Assembly (NCBI GenBank): GCA_029858305.1
Contig: JAOUFI010000002.1
Location: 32,001 to 96,000 of the forward strand
Length of the DNA: 64,000 nucleotides
Direction of reading: 5' to 3'
Source: Candidatus Thorarchaeota archaeon
GTDB lineage: Archaea; Asgardarchaeota; Thorarchaeia; Thorarchaeales; Thorarchaeaceae
Both the position numbers and the translations under genes were made by a program. The stretch's first letter is position 1, and each line of letters opens with the position of its first letter. The notes beneath the pieces were generated by a model, which saw nothing but the letters and a program-made list of their open reading frames with translations, had not been told where the DNA came from and ran no database searches. Positions 177 through 8,090 of the stretch are shown one piece after another.

Positions 177-826
177 ATGAGAAGAACACTCTTGAGGAGC
201 GTGTTTTTAAAATCGTACAGGCGGCTCGTTCAGGAGAGATAGATCCACTTGAACTTCGACTATCTGAATCGTACAGAGAGTTGAAGGAGCTCGTAGCCAA
301 GATAGATAATAGGCTTGATATTGACGAGATGCTGAATGAGGTCTTGGGAGTCAAGGTCAGTCGTGTACAAGAATTGGCACGAGTTATTGCATCACCAGAG
401 GTCTATGTAGCTCTTCTGAAAGAGAAATCAGCCCGGGATCTAGCCAAATTATTGATACAGAGGCAACCTGTCGTCATTGGTCATCTCGAGCGTGATTCAC
501 TAAACGGTTCACTAGACAGAATCGTTCAGTTAATTGATGCAATGTCCCGCGAACCACCAGATGATCAAGTACCGAAAATGACCGGTCTTCCAAATGGATA
601 TGCATTCGAAACGGAGGATGCTGTCTTTATCGAGGATCTCGAGAAATTTCTTGAGACGATTCCTCTAGAGGGGAAAGTCATCTTTGATGCCATCATAGAC
701 ACTGATGAACTCGATTTGTTTCTAAAGTACTTTCTATATGTCATCATTCTTGTGTCGAGTGGACGTCTACTCTACAATCCTGCAACCCGCCAACTATGGA
801 AACCTCTTGTACCTGAAGCCACATAA
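173..826 (+). CDS. Kleisin (ScpA/Nse4-like) subunit
   Basis: N-terminal GEIDPLELRL resembles ScpA GEIDPWDIDI; C-terminal FLYVIILVSSGRLLY resembles the kleisin winged-helix FLALLEL..G.I motif; overlaps the SMC stop codon. Confidence 0.65.
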   Translation: MNEKNTLEERVFKIVQAARSGEIDPLELRLSESYRELKELVAKIDNRLDIDEMLNEVLGVKVSRVQELARVIASPEVYVALLKEKSARDLAKLLIQRQPVVIGHLERDSLNGSLDRIVQLIDAMSREPPDDQVPKMTGLPNGYAFETEDAVFIEDLEKFLETIPLEGKVIFDAIIDTDELDLFLKYFLYVIILVSSGRLLYNPATRQLWKPLVPEAT

Positions 827-892
827 TTGGTAAAGTTCTTTGCATCAGATGAGTGTTCAGTCAAAGAAACAAGCTGAAGTGCACTTGGAATT

Positions 893-2233
893 TCAGGCAA
901 CAGCCTCAGCTTGAAGTAAACTCGTGATTTCTATTGGTTCTTCATTTTCTTTTGGTAGTTGAGAATGCAACTTGAGTTTAGCTACTGCTAGGAAGCCTAG
1001 TAATGAAACCACCACAAGGGCCGTAGCTGCAGCGATGAAAGGAGGACTAGTAGAACCGACAGCTTCAGCCCAAACTCCTCCAATCCCCATCCCAATGACT
1101 TGGACAGCTGTAAAGGCAACATTGAGAAGAGCAAACACACGACCACGAAGCTCGTCCTCAACCAGCTCTTGTATTAATACAGTGAGAGGGATGTTCAAGA
1201 TAACATCTACAGCACCAATCATTGCCCATGAAAGCAAAACAGTTACGAAGTCAAAAGCTAGAGCCATCGCAAAGACACCAATACCAGCTAGAAGTCCTGC
1301 AAATGCAATCAGATAGAGTGGCTTCTCGAGCTTCTTCTTCCTACTCAGGTAAATTGCTGCTATTGCTCCTGTTCCTGCTCCTGCACTCAGAAGAAAACCG
1401 ATTTGAGTTGATCCAAGTCCTAGTTCACCCTCAAAAAATGGCATTAATAGTGCATTAAGGATACCCGATGATACTGCTAGCATCATCGCAAACACAAAGA
1501 GAAATGAGAGGATTGCATTTCCTATGACATAACGACCACCCTGAATAATCTGTCCTCGTAATGACTCGTGTTCGATTTGATGTCTCTTGGGTCTAAGATC
1601 TGTGGCAATTCCATGAAGTGCAATAGCTGATAAAGCAAACGTCATTGATGTGACTGCAAAGGCTAGAAAATAATTGGGAGCAAGGAGCGCAACAAGAATA
1701 CCTCCGAGTGGCGGAACAACTAACTGAACAACTTGGAATGTCATCTGAGATAGAGAGTTGGCTGCAACTAATTCATCGCCCTCGACAAGATTAGGAATAG
1801 ATGCGCTCCTTGCTGGGAAGAACCATGCATTTGCGGTTGCATAGATAAATGTCAATATGTAAACCCAATAAATTGTGGGAATAAAGGATGGGAAGTAAAT
1901 TGTAAGTGGAATCATGAGGATAGCTATAGCTCTAACAATATCTGATACAATCATGATTTTCTTTCGATTCCAAAGATCAACATATACTCCAACAAAACCA
2001 GCGAATACAACGATAGGCAAAACTTCCATCATTGTTAGTATCGCCATTGCCAGAGCTGAACCGGTTAGGTCGTACGCATAGAACAAAAGCGCAAGGGCTG
2101 AAATTGCTGTGCCAATATTAGAAACAAATTGACCCGACCATAATCTTGAGAAATCTCGGTGACCAAGTACAGCACGAAATCCTATTGGTCGTTTTTCTCC
2201 ACTGACATCTTCAATAATTTGTGTTTCCATCAC
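893..2233 (-). CDS. MFS transporter, DHA3/MFS_3 (MefA/EntS-like) exporter
   Basis: About 12 hydrophobic segments; RDFSRLWSGQFVSNIG, GVYVDLWNRKKIMIVSDIVR and ELRGRVF motifs. Start is GTG 2233 or ATG 2230. Confidence 0.9.
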   Translation of the reverse strand: MMETQIIEDVSGEKRPIGFRAVLGHRDFSRLWSGQFVSNIGTAISALALLFYAYDLTGSALAMAILTMMEVLPIVVFAGFVGVYVDLWNRKKIMIVSDIVRAIAILMIPLTIYFPSFIPTIYWVYILTFIYATANAWFFPARSASIPNLVEGDELVAANSLSQMTFQVVQLVVPPLGGILVALLAPNYFLAFAVTSMTFALSAIALHGIATDLRPKRHQIEHESLRGQIIQGGRYVIGNAILSFLFVFAMMLAVSSGILNALLMPFFEGELGLGSTQIGFLLSAGAGTGAIAAIYLSRKKKLEKPLYLIAFAGLLAGIGVFAMALAFDFVTVLLSWAMIGAVDVILNIPLTVLIQELVEDELRGRVFALLNVAFTAVQVIGMGIGGVWAEAVGSTSPPFIAAATALVVVSLLGFLAVAKLKLHSQLPKENEEPIEITSLLQAEAVA

Positions 2234-2238
2234 AAATA

Positions 2239-2337
2239 TTATCTCCTGAAATATGCCCAGGCAATCGCTTCAGTTGAGATTGTGGGCTTCGATTTGTTCA
2301 AGATGCGAGGAGTTGGATTGATGATTGTCGGGATCAT
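2239..2337 (-). CDS. Small peptide sORF5, 32 aa: MIPTIINPTPRILNKSKPTISTEAIAWAYFRR
   Basis: ATG preceded by GGAGTTGA; shares the STEAxAxAY..RR motif with sORF1/2; its 3' end AGGAGA is positioned as the SD for the MFS gene. Confidence 0.7.
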   Translation of the reverse strand: MIPTIINPTPRILNKSKPTISTEAIAWAYFRR

Positions 2338-2341
2338 ATTT

Positions 2342-2455
2342 TCAACTCCGAAATTGGATATTATTGAAAATGAAGGAGTCCTTCGATTGAACTTGGACTG
2401 ACCTGTTTTCCTTCGTGACGGAAAGAATGATTGAATTATTTGTTAGCTTCATCAT
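2342..2455 (-). CDS. Small peptide sORF4, 37 aa: MMKLTNNSIILSVTKENRSVQVQSKDSFIFNNIQFRS
   Basis: ATG preceded by SD-like GAGATGTGA; N-terminus MKLTNN resembles MALTTNN of sORF1; tiles between sORF3 and sORF5. Confidence 0.5.
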   Translation of the reverse strand: MMKLTNNSIILSVTKENRSVQVQSKDSFIFNNIQFRS

Positions 2456-2468
2456 TGTTCACATCTCG

Positions 2469-2597
2469 TTATACGGTGGTCACAGGTAATGCGGTTTCTG
2501 AGACTAACTGACCATTCTTATGACCACTAGGTGACCATCGACTGACAAGGTCGGGATCAGAAAGGAGCCAGAAGGTCTGTCGCTCAGAGGTTATCAA
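2469..2597 (-). CDS. Small peptide sORF3, 42 aa: MITSERQTFWLLSDPDLVSRWSPSGHKNGQLVSETALPVTTV
   Basis: TTG start 6 nt after the sORF2 stop, with SD GAGGT; fills the gap in the chain but lacks the shared motif. Confidence 0.35.
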   Translation of the reverse strand: MITSERQTFWLLSDPDLVSRWSPSGHKNGQLVSETALPVTTV

Positions 2598-2603
2598 TAG
2601 GAT

Positions 2604-2705
2604 CTACCTCTTGAAAGTCAAGTAAGCATAGGTCAGAGCATCTGTTGAGAGAGTCTTGTTTTGCTTGTACTTCTGAAGGATTCGGTAGTTTGTTGCTAGA
2701 GCCAT
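2604..2705 (-). CDS. Small peptide sORF2, 33 aa: MALATNYRILQKYKQNKTLSTDALTYAYLTFKR
   Basis: ATG 7 nt after the sORF1 stop, with strong SD AGGAGGT; paralog of sORF1 (MALxTNxR...LSTxAxxYAYL). Confidence 0.75.
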   Translation of the reverse strand: MALATNYRILQKYKQNKTLSTDALTYAYLTFKR

Positions 2706-2712
2706 AGTTGTT

Positions 2713-2814
2713 TTACCTCCTGTAGAGATATGCGTATGCTACAGCCTCGGTGGAGAGGGGATTGCGATCGTGCTTGTGCACGCGTTCAGTTCGGTTGTTA
2801 GTTGTCAGAGCCAT
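2713..2814 (-). CDS. Small peptide sORF1, 33 aa: MALTTNNRTERVHKHDRNPLSTEAVAYAYLYRR
   Basis: First ATG about 33 nt downstream of a TATATATA box; paralog of sORF2 and sORF5. Confidence 0.75.
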   Translation of the reverse strand: MALTTNNRTERVHKHDRNPLSTEAVAYAYLYRR

Positions 2815-2846
2815 AATAGTTCACAAGAAATACTGCTCAGAATTAG

Positions 2847-2854
2847 TATATATA
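2847..2854 (-). promoter_or_regulatory. TATA box for the sORF array-MFS transcript
   Basis: TATATATA at archaeal promoter spacing upstream of the sORF1 ATG (2814). Confidence 0.55.
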
Positions 2855-2969
2855 GCGAAGCCACTTCTGAGGGACACAAGATGAAGTCACAAGATGTGAC
2901 TATCTCTAGAGCGCGCTAATATCTTCGGAGGTCATACTTTATACCGGATGATTCTGAGAGGATCTAGAA

Positions 2970-3470
2970 ATGAACGAGTATGCAGTGCTTGTTAAACTTC
3001 TAACAAGAACAGGAACACCCATTGGAGCAAGCATTGAGGACATGCTCGATGCCCTTGGGCTCCCCGAAGAGCCAGGGCGGCACATTCTTTTCAAAAAATT
3101 AAGCGGCCTTCATACTAGACTCAAACCTATCGGTCTGTACATCAAACATAATCCAGTATCAGGAGTCTTCTACCTTGATACTTTAAATGATGCTGCTATT
3201 GCCCATGAAAACACTGCGCTGCCTGATAGACTAGCTGCGACACTTCTCATTGTCATCACACTTGCATACCAAGAGGGAGGATGGGTCAGCATTGACAGAG
3301 TACGAGAGTTCAGAAAGAAGGCTTTGCAGGGCGTTATGGTAGACCTTCGCGAACTTCAAAATCAGGGCTATGTCGAGATTGAGCAGGATAAGAAGCGAGT
3401 TAGGCTTGGAACTAGAGTGCCTTTTGAGATCGATTATGAGGCATTCTTCAAGGAACTTACAGAGAATTAG
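2970..3470 (+). CDS. KITE-like tandem winged-helix protein (ScpB/Nse1/Nse3-like)
   Basis: 166 aa with two predicted WH domains (LHTRLKPIGLYIKH..FYL; LRELQNQGYVEIE..VRLGTR), a pattern typical of KITE proteins; near SMC and kleisin genes. Confidence 0.6.
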   Translation: MNEYAVLVKLLTRTGTPIGASIEDMLDALGLPEEPGRHILFKKLSGLHTRLKPIGLYIKHNPVSGVFYLDTLNDAAIAHENTALPDRLAATLLIVITLAYQEGGWVSIDRVREFRKKALQGVMVDLRELQNQGYVEIEQDKKRVRLGTRVPFEIDYEAFFKELTEN

Positions 3471-3542
3471 AGCTTCATAAAAAAGATGGTGGCTTCGTTA
3501 GTTTTATCAGTAGTCAACAGCGACTCATAATTGGTTAGAATT

Positions 3543-3902
3543 ATGTCCCACAGGCGTTCACTTCGATTTTCACAGTCGACCTGCCCAGTATGCGGGGGCA
3601 AAGAAGTCGCTCGAGATGACCTAAAAGGAGACCTTCTTTGCACCAACTGCGGACATATTGTTACCCGAACTGAGTCAAGATCTGTTGGTAAGTTCGACAT
3701 AGCTCAGCATCTTAAAAGAAACGGAAAGATGACTTTCCCAAGACTAAAGGAAGTTACCGGAGCCTCTGATGACAAGCTCTTTGGTGTTCTCTCCGGTATG
3801 GAGAGCATGGATCTCGTCACACAGCTAGCTGGACAATATTCCTTGACAAAGAAAGGGCAAAGATGGTACCGTCAGAGACTGGGTCAAGAATGGGGATACT
3901 GA
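3543..3902 (+). CDS. TFIIB-type zinc ribbon fused to a winged-helix domain
   Basis: CPVCGG...DDLKGDLLCTNCGHIV is a TFB-like ribbon; the C-terminal wHTH ends YSLTKKGQ. ATG 3543 preferred over TTG 3531. Confidence 0.7.
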   Translation: MSHRRSLRFSQSTCPVCGGKEVARDDLKGDLLCTNCGHIVTRTESRSVGKFDIAQHLKRNGKMTFPRLKEVTGASDDKLFGVLSGMESMDLVTQLAGQYSLTKKGQRWYRQRLGQEWGY

Positions 3903-3993
3903 AATAAGAGATGCATCCCCTCAACCTTAGTGGTAACTATATTTACATGCAATCCACAATTTTATTGTGCTAATTTTTACCGTTTGAAATAGA

Positions 3994-4002
3994 TTTATTA
4001 AA
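3994..4002 (+). promoter_or_regulatory. TATA box (TTTATTAAA) with purine-rich BRE for putative ncRNA-1
   Basis: Ends about 21 nt upstream of the predicted 5' stem at 4023; no ORF follows. Confidence 0.55.
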
Positions 4003-4022
4003 CTCTGTTTTGAGTATCTAGT

Positions 4023-4116
4023 AGGGTTCGATTCGTTGAATTCTTAGTTCTTCAATCTCCCTCCTAACCACGCGATGTGCTGCGAGAGCAGTACCTTTGA
4101 TTTCGAATCGAATCCT
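4023..4116 (+). ncRNA. Putative structured ncRNA, copy 1
   Basis: 13-bp terminal stem AGGGUUCGAUUCG/CGAAUCGAAUCCU; core 4050-4075; hairpin GUGCUGC-GAGA-GCAGUAC (GNRA loop); upstream TATA and downstream U-rich tract. Confidence 0.65.
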
Positions 4117-4217
4117 TTCATTCTCTCTTTTCTGATTGTATTTTGTGTATTCGTTCATAAAAACCACAAATGAGTGTTTACTCAAAGTTAATTATTCCAA
4201 ATGTACCTAACTAAATG

Positions 4218-4226
4218 TTTAATATA
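4218..4226 (+). promoter_or_regulatory. TATA box (TTTAATATA) for putative ncRNA-2
   Basis: Same spacing to the AGGG 5' end as in copy 1. Confidence 0.55.
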
Positions 4227-4248
4227 CGTTCGGATGGAAACTCTATTA

Positions 4249-4384
4249 GGGCTTGGAACAGAGAGCTTCAAACTCCCCTCCTAACCACGCGAATATTCCT
4301 ATATCCAAAACCCAAACCCAAAAAACTGGTGTCTGGATGGTTGTAGGAACCTACTTTCCCTAGATTTTTCTCTGAACCAGGCCC
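4249..4384 (+). ncRNA. Putative structured ncRNA, copy 2
   Basis: Terminal stem GGGCUUGG/CCAGGCCC plus CAGAGAG/UUCUCUG; core 4266-4292 nearly identical to copy 1; inner stem UUCCUAUA/UGUAGGAA; pyrimidine tract downstream. Confidence 0.65.
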
Positions 4385-4400
4385 GTATTCCTTCTTAATT

Positions 4401-5558
4401 TTAAACCGTCTTCTTCGAGATAATCAAGTTTGGACCATCAATTTTGACGGGCATCTCAGGAGGCAAATCTAGAAGCCAATCCTCTAGCTCTTCAGGACTC
4501 TTGAACCGAAGTAGAATTCCCAATCTATCGAGTGGCAGGGTCTCATAACGGGTCATGATTTTCTTCATCTGAACCATTCGGAACGCTTCCAGTTCTGCTT
4601 TGGCTTCTTCCGCTAACTCCTTTGTTTTATCAAACCACGGACTATCACGTTCGAACTCCCATATTTCAACGAGCCCCTCCATCGAACCTGTAACGACATA
4701 TCTCTCATCAGGGGAAACAACCAACGCATGAACATTCTCAGTGTGTGTAACATCAGCTATGAGCACACCGCCGCGGAGAACCCAAACTCGGACTGTACCA
4801 TCTGATGAACCAGTAATAAAATGCTGACCATCATTCGTAATGTGAATCGAGAGAATTGGAGCTCGATGACCTGTCATAGTTTTGAGTAGCGTGCCGGTTT
4901 CAAGATCCCACAGGTACACAGTGCCATCCTGATCACCTGTGAGAATATAGCGAGAATCAGCAGTCATAGACAAAGCTGTCACATGACCTTTATGCCCCTT
5001 AAGGGTTCTAAGGAGTACACCCAGCTCGAAGTCCCAGATCCAGGCGATACCAGGATCTCTGTTACCTGGCACTCGTTTGCTCCCTGAAATTAAGTACCGT
5101 CCATCAGGACTGACAAGCATCGAATATATGCCGCGTTCATGATCTGATGTGCGAAGAAGAATCCCTCGATCAACATCCCAGTATCTTGCTAGTCCATCAT
5201 CTCCTCCAGTGACAATATACCTCTGATCAGGACTGATAGCTATTGCTGTGACATGAACAGAGTTTGGCGCGAGCGATCTGATTAACTCATGATTCTCCAA
5301 ATCCCAGATCTTAACAGCGAGGTCCTTGTCAGCAATGGAAACAAGACGTTTTCCATCGGGCATCACAGCAAGGCTGTATACAGGCCCGTTATGGCCTAGG
5401 AATTTATGAATCTCTTTTCCTGATGCAAAATCCCAAAGACGAATACTTGTATCCTGACCACCCGATATTATTGTCTGACCATCTGGCGTTATAGCTAAAG
5501 ACCAAACCGTGAACTCGTGCCCTTCCATTTGACAACTAGGTGTCATCTCATTAACCAA
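4401..5558 (-). CDS. WD40 beta-propeller protein with C-terminal PCI/winged-helix-like domain
   Basis: About seven GH...WD repeats; C-terminal IMTRYETLPLDRLGILLRFKSPEELEDWL resembles a PCI winged helix. Confidence 0.85.
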   Translation of the reverse strand: MVNEMTPSCQMEGHEFTVWSLAITPDGQTIISGGQDTSIRLWDFASGKEIHKFLGHNGPVYSLAVMPDGKRLVSIADKDLAVKIWDLENHELIRSLAPNSVHVTAIAISPDQRYIVTGGDDGLARYWDVDRGILLRTSDHERGIYSMLVSPDGRYLISGSKRVPGNRDPGIAWIWDFELGVLLRTLKGHKGHVTALSMTADSRYILTGDQDGTVYLWDLETGTLLKTMTGHRAPILSIHITNDGQHFITGSSDGTVRVWVLRGGVLIADVTHTENVHALVVSPDERYVVTGSMEGLVEIWEFERDSPWFDKTKELAEEAKAELEAFRMVQMKKIMTRYETLPLDRLGILLRFKSPEELEDWLLDLPPEMPVKIDGPNLIISKKTV

Positions 5559-5637
5559 ATATATTCTCCCTCAGCGCAGCTTGTGACCTTCTTAATAGAA
5601 TGAATGAACAAAAGTTTGTCGTTTCCTCGGAGGATAT

Positions 5638-5674
5638 AAGAAAAAGAGAGGGACGGTGGCAGATTGTGCCACCG
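5638..5674 (-). terminator. Hairpin plus T-rich tract downstream of hppA
   Basis: CGGTGGCA-N5-TGCCACCG (5654-5674) followed on the minus strand by CCCTCTCTTTTT. Confidence 0.55.
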
Positions 5675-5693
5675 CATCAATAATGCATTCGGA

Positions 5694-8090
5694 CTAGACG
5701 ACTTCAGTGTGCACTTTTTGTTCCATGCCGAAGTCAGCTGGCTTCATACTCTTACGAAGTGCCCAGAGTGTTACAGCAAACAGTATGATGAGAGCAAAAA
5801 CAGCAACGTAGGTCATTGTTGCAGATACTGTTGTTTCTAGCATGACCAGAAGTGGAGCCAAAATCAAAGCCAAGAGATTGACTACTTTGATCATAGGATT
5901 AAGAGCTGGCCCTGCAGTGTCCTTGAGAGGATCACCTACGGTATCCCCAACAACACCACACTTGTGACGTTCTGAGCCCTTTCCAGTATTGCCTGCTGGG
6001 TTCCTAGGCTCATCCTCGATAGCCTTCTTTGCATTGTCCCAAGCACCACCAGTATTGGACATGTACACTGCTAGGAGCTGACCCGATACGATGATACCTC
6101 CGAGGAAACCTCCGAGTGCGGCTACACCAAACAAGATACCAACAATGAGAGGTATCGAAACGGTAATTGCAGCCAAGGAGATAAGTTCCTTCTGAGCCGC
6201 AGTAGTCGAGATATCTACAGCTCTATCATAGTCAGGCTTGACAGTGCCTTCAAGAATACCAGGTATTCTGAATTGTCTGCGAACCTCTATGACCATTTGA
6301 CCAGCGGCTCTTGTAACAGCCTTGATATTGACTGCGGAGAATAACCATGGTAGGGCGGCACCTAGCAGAAGCCCGGAGAATACTCTTGGGTCATCAAGGA
6401 ATAGGTGTTCCAAACCAAGTGGTTGAAGAGCTACGACGACAAAGCTATCGAAGAGACTAACAGCAGCAATCACTGCTGAAGCAATAGCTACTCCCTTGGT
6501 AATCGCTTTGGTAGTATTTCCAACTGCATCAAGTTCAGCCATGACCTTCTGTGACTCCTTATCGAAGTCACCAGGAGAGAGCTCACCAATACCTGCAGCA
6601 TTATCACTGATAGGACCGTATGAATCCATAGCAACATTATTGCCTGTGTGTGATAACATTCCAATACCAATCAATGCAATACCGTAAAGTGTCCATAGAT
6701 TGCCCTCAACTCCGACAACGAAGAAGGGAGCAAATATAGCAGCTACTCCTGGGAGGAATAAGACTGTAGCAATACCAAAGGTTGAAACTATTACGACTAG
6801 TGCAGCAACTGTTGATTCATAGCCAGCAACAACACCGGAGAGAATGAAAGTTGCTGTACCAGTGTCAGCAGATTTGACAATCTCCTGAACTGGAGGTTTT
6901 CTAAGGGATGTGAAGTAACTTGTAATTGGATTGAATGAAACAGCTAGCATTACACCGACCGCAATAAGAATCCCGAACCTGAGGTCTCCAACATAGAACC
7001 ATGATAATATCAGGGTCAGGCAGATTGTAAAGATGCTGGAAGCTTCATAGGAGAGGAACATTGCTTTTTCAGCATAAACTGCTCGTTTCTTCAACAGTCT
7101 TGGCCAGACTGGGACCATTACGGTTCCGATCATTGATGATATCACACCTACAGCTCTGACGAAGAGTGGAAAAACAACAACTGCAAGTGCTCCACCAGGA
7201 AGCATTGGAAAGACGCCATCAACTGTTTCAAGATACAATACAATAGCAAGGATGAGGGATGACACAATGGTTACTTCGTATGACTCAAAAATGTCAGCAG
7301 CCATACCAGCACAGTCGCCTACATTGTCTCCAACGAGGTCTGCAATAACCGCAGCATTTCTTGGGTCATCTTCAGGAAGCCCCTGCTCAACTTTACCAAC
7401 AAGATCTGCTCCAACATCGGCGGCCTTTGTGTAAATACCACCACCAACTCTCATGAAGAGAGCAAGAAGCGTACCACCCAGACCAAAGCCGAGAAGCGCA
7501 TCAGGCGCTGCAATTCCGTAGATGATGAAAATGATAGTACCACCTAACAGACCAAGTCCATCAGTCAGCATTCCTGTAAAAGTACCACCTCGATAGGATA
7601 TCGTTAGGGCTCTATTGTACCTGTTTTCTCCTTCACGTGTAGCTTGTGCAACTCGAATGTTGGACTCGACAGCAATACGCATGCCAAGTTGACCGACAAT
7701 CAGTGAGAAGCTTGCACCAAGAATAAAGGCTAACGAACGACCAACGCCGACAATTATGCGGCCGGCCGCTGTATCACCGAATAAGACTTCAGTACCTCTT
7801 TCTGGTGTTGTTATGTAAACGGTGAAAAAGAGAAGGATAGATAGCACAATCAATATCGGAACAATGGTCTTCAATTGCCTGTGCAAATATGACAATGCAC
7901 CTTCTCTTATGCCGTTCCAAACTCTCTGCATCTGCTCAGTACCTTTGTCCTGTGACAGAACACCTTTCCTGAGCCACCAAGCGTACACGAGACTTACGAT
8001 TGCTGCTGCGATAACTGTCAGTATCATTAACTGCTCAATCAACAGCATTCCTGCGAATGTCTCGAATAACTGCATTTTATCGTTCACCAT
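5694..8090 (-). CDS. hppA: Membrane-bound H+-translocating pyrophosphatase, K+-independent type
   Basis: GGGIYTKAADVGADLVGKVE, DNVGD-type and GDTVGDPLKD motifs; GNTTKA has Lys at the K+-dependence determinant position. Confidence 0.95.
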   Translation of the reverse strand: MVNDKMQLFETFAGMLLIEQLMILTVIAAAIVSLVYAWWLRKGVLSQDKGTEQMQRVWNGIREGALSYLHRQLKTIVPILIVLSILLFFTVYITTPERGTEVLFGDTAAGRIIVGVGRSLAFILGASFSLIVGQLGMRIAVESNIRVAQATREGENRYNRALTISYRGGTFTGMLTDGLGLLGGTIIFIIYGIAAPDALLGFGLGGTLLALFMRVGGGIYTKAADVGADLVGKVEQGLPEDDPRNAAVIADLVGDNVGDCAGMAADIFESYEVTIVSSLILAIVLYLETVDGVFPMLPGGALAVVVFPLFVRAVGVISSMIGTVMVPVWPRLLKKRAVYAEKAMFLSYEASSIFTICLTLILSWFYVGDLRFGILIAVGVMLAVSFNPITSYFTSLRKPPVQEIVKSADTGTATFILSGVVAGYESTVAALVVIVSTFGIATVLFLPGVAAIFAPFFVVGVEGNLWTLYGIALIGIGMLSHTGNNVAMDSYGPISDNAAGIGELSPGDFDKESQKVMAELDAVGNTTKAITKGVAIASAVIAAVSLFDSFVVVALQPLGLEHLFLDDPRVFSGLLLGAALPWLFSAVNIKAVTRAAGQMVIEVRRQFRIPGILEGTVKPDYDRAVDISTTAAQKELISLAAITVSIPLIVGILFGVAALGGFLGGIIVSGQLLAVYMSNTGGAWDNAKKAIEDEPRNPAGNTGKGSERHKCGVVGDTVGDPLKDTAGPALNPMIKVVNLLALILAPLLVMLETTVSATMTYVAVFALIILFAVTLWALRKSMKPADFGMEQKVHTEVV

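Follow-up and report, generated by a model that had tools for sequence, protein, structure and literature searches.

Stem-closed small RNAs presenting an anti-Shine-Dalgarno-containing core in Thorarchaeota: an uncatalogued RNA family with core-splitting introns and copies on virus-like DNA

The DNA analysed here (the window, 64,000 nt of a Candidatus Thorarchaeota contig) encodes an uncatalogued small RNA in two paralogous copies, each with a promoter of its own, at positions 4023-4116 (RNA 1) and 4249-4384 (RNA 2). That they represent a real functional RNA is close to certain. Their best explanation, to which a probability of about 0.45 is given, is a stable, independently transcribed RNA that functions in trans, within a ribonucleoprotein (RNP), to influence the initiation of translation. 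An earlier note, made from the sequence alone, had proposed a paralogous small-RNA family in which a closed stem presents a conserved single-stranded core, and the covarying stem supports that proposal. The present analysis adds the anti-Shine-Dalgarno (anti-SD) hexamer in the core, the bulge-helix-bulge (BHB) introns in relatives, and the occurrence of the core on virus-like contigs.

Both units are located in an ORF-free gap (3903-4400, without an ORF of 60 aa), as the earlier note had described, between a TFIIB-type zinc-ribbon/HTH gene (3531-3902) and a convergent WD40 gene. The zinc-ribbon/HTH gene, the last of a putative SMC-type operon, was assigned by synteny and a weak match to Pfam PF08271 under the cut-off. 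It and all features of the two RNAs are on the plus strand. TATA-like boxes are present at 3994-4001 (TTTATTAA) and 4218-4225 (TTTAATAT), ending 21 and 22 nt ahead of AGGG at 4023 and 4248, respectively. The spacing of the first box to the 5' stem recurs in homologues, the second box is conserved in relatives, and a purine-rich BRE-like stretch (3986-3993) lies directly upstream of the first. RNA 1 is a genus-restricted type 1 paralogue of about 94 nt, recognised by its fold and its genus homologues, with ends deduced from the sequence. It comprises a 13-bp closing stem (4023-4035/4104-4116), a small 5' hairpin, an open loop (4050-4076; mean probability of being unpaired 0.87), and a variable inner hairpin capped by a GAGA tetraloop (4077-4094), whose sequence and loop differ among relatives. 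The invariant part of the loop, CCUCCUAACCACGCG, occupies 4060-4074 and has one A fewer in most type 1 relatives. The pyrimidine tract that follows (4117-4135; 14 of 15 nt pyrimidine) is, from what is generally known of archaeal termination, a probable terminator.

RNA 2 belongs to type 2, the family-wide form, and is about 136 nt long here and 79-112 nt in most relatives. Its closing stem comprises 8 and 7 bp (4249-4256/4377-4384 and 4259-4265/4368-4374). The open loop (4266-4295; mean probability of being unpaired 0.88) consists of a C-run with the anti-SD CCUCCU and then AACCACGCGAAUA, with an invariant part at 4277-4291, and this loop is the site of BHB introns in relatives. An optional inner hairpin (4296-4349), lengthened here, is short in close relatives and absent in basal genera. 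It is followed by a second conserved loop motif, CCUAC, with a U/C tract (4350-4361), and by a pyrimidine tract facing the WD40 gene (4385-4400), a probable terminator. The paired ends, the core starts at 4050 and 4266, the GAGA-capped hairpin and the pyrimidine tails all agree with the description in the earlier note. The inner hairpin and linker that it reported in both copies are present locally, but the hairpin is optional and missing from basal members, and the GAUUU linker, like the CUUCAA 5' part, is a genus-level or local feature rather than a family-wide one.

The fold z-scores on the plus strand were -3.9 for RNA 1 and -4.0 for RNA 2, with 0/200 and 1/200 shuffles folding as well, versus -1.3 and -2.2 on the minus strand; RNA 2 is additionally supported by covariation and model hits. 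Even with two mismatches allowed, the 3.04-Mb genome contains the 16-mer core at these two places alone, so it is no dispersed repeat; recurrence of the core throughout the genome without flanking stems had been named earlier as an observation that would speak against an RNA family. A genome scan for TATA-stem-loop units gave six matches, of which only RNA 1 and RNA 2 were clear. It missed two further stem-closed RNAs with a C-run/CCUCCUACCA seed, located at about 20560-20650 of contig C47 (L295) and about 100290-100385 of contig C119 (L296) of the same genome (G000). These RNAs have z-scores of -5.0 and -1.7, respectively, other 3' extensions and a shared upstream motif, and probably form a sister of the family described here.

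Throughout the family, the loop is G-poor and contains a near-invariant core, CCCUCCUA(A)CCACGCGA, held open by a covarying end-to-end stem. In alignment A1, about 20 nt of the loop are invariant, over CCCCUCCUAACCACGCGAAUA, and this invariance is partly a matter of ascertainment because the members were found by their core. The covariance model later added variants with altered spacing between the core halves (UA, UAA, UAAA or an extra CA), which fits two separate binding elements. The core of host copies was predicted to be unpaired with a median probability of 0.86 (n = 87). In the closing stem, 83.8% of cells were paired versus 74.0% in shuffled alignments, a value reached by 0 of 500 shuffles, and two-sided changes were found in 40 cells versus 15, with 8 of the 17 pairs showing them; the test covered 22 of the 76 type 2 units, with the structure set by eye and with shuffles that ignore kinship. 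Registers obtained by sliding the stem were 24-66% paired (at most 65.6%), and RNAalifold applied to a MAFFT alignment put the stem in the wrong register. G-U pairs made up 143 of the 1127 closing pairs of 75 units, a count from which 12 automatic unit boundaries judged wrong had been dropped. The closing stems are either fully paired or interrupted by variable internal (2x2) loops, and optional hairpins are located 5' or 3' of the core and extend across it only as an intron. Hairpins beside the core often consist of the motif, its inverted copy and the motif again (L011-L016, L026, L031-L033, L042, L165, and L174). Such sense-antisense-sense hairpins look like a template-switch pattern, which would lengthen the RNA and leave the core exposed. 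A TATA-like hexamer starts 25-33 nt before the 5' end in 82 of the 87 distinct host units (at 29-31 nt in 67), a statistic that is partly circular because the TATA box helped to choose the 5' start. The tails of these units are 74% pyrimidine.

The covariance model, built from 22 basal units, matched 67 of the 86 genomes of this Thorarchaeota family, including 21 of the 23 high-quality ones; a model search of Asgard genomes had been suggested in the earlier note. A 15-nt pattern with one mismatch allowed was found in 57 of the 86 genomes, mostly single and exact. The exact 18-mer scan of 596 Gb yielded 57 loci, namely 54 in archaeal records (Thorarchaeota, Promethearchaeota or unclassified archaeon) and three in bacterial ones, the latter without the stem. 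Among 80 other Asgard genomes, no convincing model match was obtained under strict filters with 56 candidates scored per genome, settings at which distant homologues could be missed; two weak matches (E 0.07 and 0.09) lacked the core. The one-mismatch pattern gave 14 matches in 12 other Asgard genomes, and the 12 loci inspected were unrelated, mostly coding sequence.

Type 1 RNAs were seen only in the source genus, where they lie upstream of type 2, either adjacent or with intervening genes. The RNA gene is usually located behind the putative SMC-type operon and follows the zinc-ribbon gene in most relatives; in the 21 regions compared, the neighbourhood included a kite-like gene in 16 and a zinc-ribbon gene in 15. 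Domain scans gave no confirmation of the SMC, kleisin and kite labels of the operon genes. In the source genus, the putative operon is split between its kleisin-like and kite-like genes by an MFS transporter gene and an unannotated stretch (window positions 826-2970). Genus g9 has a second, differently folded paralogue at another locus (L280 on G035:C1 and L281 on G081:C44), which carries the same lineage-specific extra-A core and has its anti-SD part predicted as paired. In genome G076, the intact gene is accompanied, at a distance of about 1.2 kb, by a second, degenerate copy whose core is damaged (L247, about 1152-1223, minus strand). L076 (G024:C1) is a second copy of type 2, in the style of another genus; it stands in an unusual context on a 6-kb contig and may be a binning contaminant.

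In 11 genomes, the core is split by an insert of 30-63 nt. The intron-bearing copies are of type 2 in eight genomes of genus g3 and in G068, and of type 1 in G027 and G003. A strict BHB search (4-bp helix, two 3-nt bulges, inner helix, cut after the second bulge base) returned exactly one cut restoring the core in 9 of the 11 copies; the other two have the same layout with an inner-helix mismatch and fail only the rule of an uninterrupted 3-bp inner helix. Ten inserts follow CCCUCC, and one occupies a second site. Since the g3 introns share their ends, they were counted as one event, which suggests approximately four events at two sites. The outer helix measures 0-1 bp, so the core introns correspond to relaxed HBh' sites, and EndA domains were detected in all five genomes tested. 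For the nine type 2 cases, pattern and model searches found no intact copy, including in G068, which is 98% complete. The single copy detected in each of these genomes has a split core that RNA splicing alone can mend, so the core would work as RNA and not as DNA. The introns, with their predicted splicing, are the strongest argument for this. Pairing between the intron and the C-run is predicted to keep the seed buried until splicing: the seed's probability of being unpaired was 0.30-0.76 before splicing and 0.93-0.99 after in all 11 copies. With the seed buried in unspliced precursors, splicing could gate activity.

Archaeal BHB sites are described as a 4-bp central helix between two 3-nt bulges, from which the excised piece is circularised, and the EndA substrates listed in the same sources are tRNA, rRNA, one mRNA and one 5' UTR (PMC7714728; PMC12558985). 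Asgard tRNAs are reported as intron-rich (PMC11291895). The core introns resemble such introns in the 4-bp helix and the two 3-nt bulges, and in residing in intron-rich Asgard genomes, but differ from those described there in interrupting the active strand of a small RNA that stands alone. A free-standing small RNA would thereby join the known substrates of the archaeal splicing endonuclease. In G028 (L095), two BHB introns were also observed near the 3' end of the 16S rRNA gene; they measure 30 and 33 nt, in the same size range as the core introns, and one lies in the decoding-region strand and the other directly before the anti-SD tail. The 16S rRNA gene of G062 (L094) has a longer insert in the helix 45 region, for which the strict BHB test gave no fit.

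Six copies of non-host type combine the exact core with stems unrelated to the host stems and have no host gene context. Two are on small contigs of genome G020 (L073 and L074), and four are among the 49 metagenome matches (L161, L166, L171, and L189), a further eight of which look like chance. The model scores of the six were 39.5, 35.2, 31.8, 27.3, 26.1, and 12.8, whereas none of 12 chance loci scored above 21.9. By a cruder measure, the stem z-score, there is support for L166 (-5.4), L171 (-3.5), and L161 (-2.7) but not for L074, L073, or L189. Judging from their genes, five of the six copies appear to be on virus-like contigs. The surroundings of L166 and L171 contain short co-directional ORFs, phage-type DNA methyltransferases, an ATPase and a PAPS-reductase-like gene, and one L166 protein resembles clusters that are 50-71% viral. 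L073, L074, and L161 are virus-like by gene layout, with weak PHROG matches for L073 only; no virus-like evidence was found for L189, and no hallmark capsid or terminase was identified on the virus-like contigs. Pattern scans of IMG/VR gave 0, 0, 1, and 0 matches, the single match being without a stem, and a phage BLAST returned chance matches only. On the 12-kb metagenome contig of L166, positions 5217-5792 (minus strand) encode a small, helical protein that has a long tail rich in lysine and resembles unnamed clusters of mostly viral proteins; it showed no clear fold match and no IMG/VR relative and is possibly a virion or DNA-binding protein.

The stem of L073 forms a full BHB, with an outer helix of 9 bp and an inner helix of 6 bp, from which excision is predicted to yield a core-containing circle of 94 nt, a candidate viral RNA ring. 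Flanking BHB motifs on L074 and L166 were rejected, as a relaxed test was also positive in 41 of the 87 host copies and 2 of 11 chance loci. Since the test fires on controls, only L073 was kept, with its 9-bp outer helix against no more than 5 bp in any control.

Three sequencing runs contain part of the region, the third being probably DNA. In a rRNA-depleted metatranscriptome, a 151-nt contig at a depth of 27.6 covers a relative's copy of RNA 2 and extends beyond it, by 36 nt on the upstream side, which takes in the TATA box, and by 10 nt on the downstream side. In the other RNA run, a 206-nt contig spans 4267-4472 at a depth of 4.1. These contigs give weak support to transcription of the RNA 2 region, as strand and ends cannot be read from them and either DNA or read-through could account for the upstream overhang; the uncovered parts, RNA 1 included, were counted as no evidence either way.

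The 5' half of the core is identical to the 3' tail of the 16S rRNA of this genome, GGAUCACCUCCU, over CCUCCU. The commonest upstream hexamers among 2626 called genes are GGAGGA, AGGUGA, and AGGAGG, indicating that the genome uses SD sites, a count that is partly circular because the choice of starts was guided by anti-SD energy. Outside the locus, the genome contained a single 13-nt complement of the core and none of 14 nt or longer. For the 3' half, there was no conserved complement in rRNA, tRNA or initiation regions. The initiation regions contained no stand-out target: eight reached a helix score of at least 9, and cores whose 3' half had been shuffled gave 2-22. Among conserved genes, gatE was the best candidate but was rejected, its 13-nt match being kept in only 1 of 30 genomes. 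In the upstream regions of gatE (L297-L326), the stop of the preceding gene abuts the gatE start, behind the SD site. This site is often GGAGGG(G)A rather than GGAGGUGA, a form that suits the C-run of the small RNA better than the 16S tail does.

As the 5' half matches the 16S tail, the 3' half lacks a complement and gatE fails, the loop is read as a seed joined to a protein-binding motif. In this bipartite arrangement, the C-run with CCUCCU(A) would serve as an anti-SD seed pairing with the GGAGG(G) ribosome-binding sites of many mRNAs, and an effector protein would read the adjoining CCACGCGA(A)UA and CCUAC, for which no conserved complement was found, and may block, degrade or hand over the mRNA. 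The stem is free in sequence and kept in pairing, so it serves only to protect the ends and hold the G-poor loop open. What selection maintains is the sequence of the loop, which, where an intron has entered, the tRNA splicing endonuclease would have to restore; burial of the seed in the precursor could make this step a switch. Viruses may have captured the module to steer host translation. The trans-acting RNP is favoured by the two sister RNAs of the same genome, which share the C-run/CCUCCUACCA seed. Against it, strong SD sites are used by the genes beside the viral copies, so that a virus would have no obvious need of a general blocker of SD sites, and the seed of the second g9 paralogue is predicted to be paired.

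The most serious rival, a possibility we rate below the trans-acting RNP, is a protein decoy, in which the whole loop is the ligand of one protein that normally binds or cuts the 16S 3' tail, for example a maturation factor, a factor that sequesters the tail or a stress/defence nuclease. In the host, the RNA would buffer this protein like an RNA antitoxin, and the viral copies would keep ribosomes working. Phages carry RNA mimics against RNA-controlled defence, and a decoy would suit some 20 invariant nucleotides with no conserved complement in mRNA, rRNA or tRNA, as well as the copies set in unrelated stems on virus-like contigs, one of them inside the full BHB. However, the same-sense identity of the core with 16S rRNA is only 6 nt, no more than for other chance 6-mers, the 3' half is unlike the 16S precursor flank in three genomes, the locus has no linked gene for a toxin or nuclease, and vertical, near single-copy conservation is housekeeping-like rather than typical of defence.

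An invariant loop in a fixed position behind the operon, with its kite-like and zinc-ribbon genes, could also belong to a guide that uses short, split pairing in the style of an H/ACA pocket to recognise a single conserved target, either RNA or DNA, or to a partner of the SMC-type complex. This is improbable: the longest complements are 7 nt in 16S and 23S rRNA and 8 nt in 39 tRNA calls, at chance level, and a role with the SMC-type complex is opposed by copies away from the operon and by the RNA's own promoter. Still less probable is a 6S-like RNA or polymerase template, whose open loop would mimic a melted promoter or be copied. Closed ends around an open strand and the sense-antisense-sense hairpins beside the core recall such RNAs, but basal members end in a terminal loop instead of a central bubble between two long stems, the complement of the core has no copies elsewhere in the genome, and there is no Rfam match.

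The earlier note had loosely compared the layout to Y or vault RNAs. The closed stem, pyrimidine-rich loop and pyrimidine 3' tail do recall them, but the likeness did not hold, and a relationship is very unlikely. The terminal stem of Y RNAs contains a conserved bulged helix, which is missing here; TROVE/Ro60 was found in none of five genomes, three of them at least 90% complete (control positive in 2 of 14), and Rfam gave no match. A search for the major vault protein (PF01505) gave no match in the five genomes, but its control was nowhere positive, and it was not counted as evidence. A DNA element, such as an operator, an origin box or a site for recombination or SMC loading, would account for the sequence invariance, the copies on mobile DNA and the linkage to the putative SMC-type operon, but it is highly improbable given the inserts splitting the motif in the only copy found in nine genomes, the G-U pairs in the closing stems, the strand-asymmetric folding and the promoter and terminator context. 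Likenesses to a tRNA-Sec-like CUUCAAA loop, a telomerase template, a branch point and bacterial 16S h31 were discarded as not family-wide or at chance level.

With Rfam 15, no family reached the gathering threshold for the two RNAs; the best matches in 3900-4450 had E values of 1.5-3.4, far below that threshold, and the only match in the window was a tRNA elsewhere. Complements of at most 7-8 nt and alignment A1, with no conserved box C/D or ACA end, give no sign of C/D or H/ACA RNAs. RsaE/RoxS-type small RNAs of Firmicutes and SD-masking small RNAs of Methanosarcina pair with ribosome-binding sites through unpaired C-rich seeds and have defined mRNA targets; the present RNAs share the unpaired C-rich seed but differ in that no enriched or conserved extended mRNA target was found, a result compatible with short pairing by the seed; the sequence relation was judged by Rfam. 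Alphaproteobacterial cuckoo RNAs (the RSs0680/CcsR and SmelC397 group) are described as paralogous and partly clustered, with an anti-SD-like C-rich loop on variable stems, in two to four adjacent hairpins that each contain CCUCCUCCC (PMC4615179). They are a precedent for small RNAs with an anti-SD loop (PMC4615179), and unpaired anti-SD-like sequence on variable stems is common to both. In contrast to that description, the Thorarchaeota RNAs have one end-to-end stem closing one loop of 30-50 nt, a longer and different core, CCCUCCUA(A)CCACGCG instead of CCUCCUCCC, a TATA promoter for each copy, introns, viral copies and no Rfam match. By this comparison, the family would seem to work most like cuckoo-type anti-SD small RNAs but fails their defining layout and motif. 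Literature searches, which included the literal core sequence and had subscription journals outside their scope, found no description of the RNA. The main text of an atlas preprint (10.64898/2026.10.21.760802) contains no Asgard or Thor passage, and its supplements or database may contain the cluster. What is new here is the uncatalogued family, the introns that split its core and the virus-like copies.

To our knowledge, hardly any work exists on the non-coding RNA of Asgard archaea, and few small RNAs of archaea show family-wide conservation. The features assembled here point to an important, putative role of this RNA in controlling translation. In its widest form, which is tentative and rather doubtful, the reading would be a Thorarchaeota housekeeping RNP in which stem-closed RNAs show the anti-SD tail together with a protein-binding code, govern SD-led translation, are switchable by EndA and were captured by viruses several times, once as an EndA-released ring. 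Covariation, introns reversible only by splicing and repeated presence on virus-like DNA are three independent signs of a 20-nt functional site, a strand that would rank alongside the tRNA anticodon loop. If true, this would be an archaeal class of small RNA that is spliced and pirated like tRNA, in the lineage nearest to eukaryotes.
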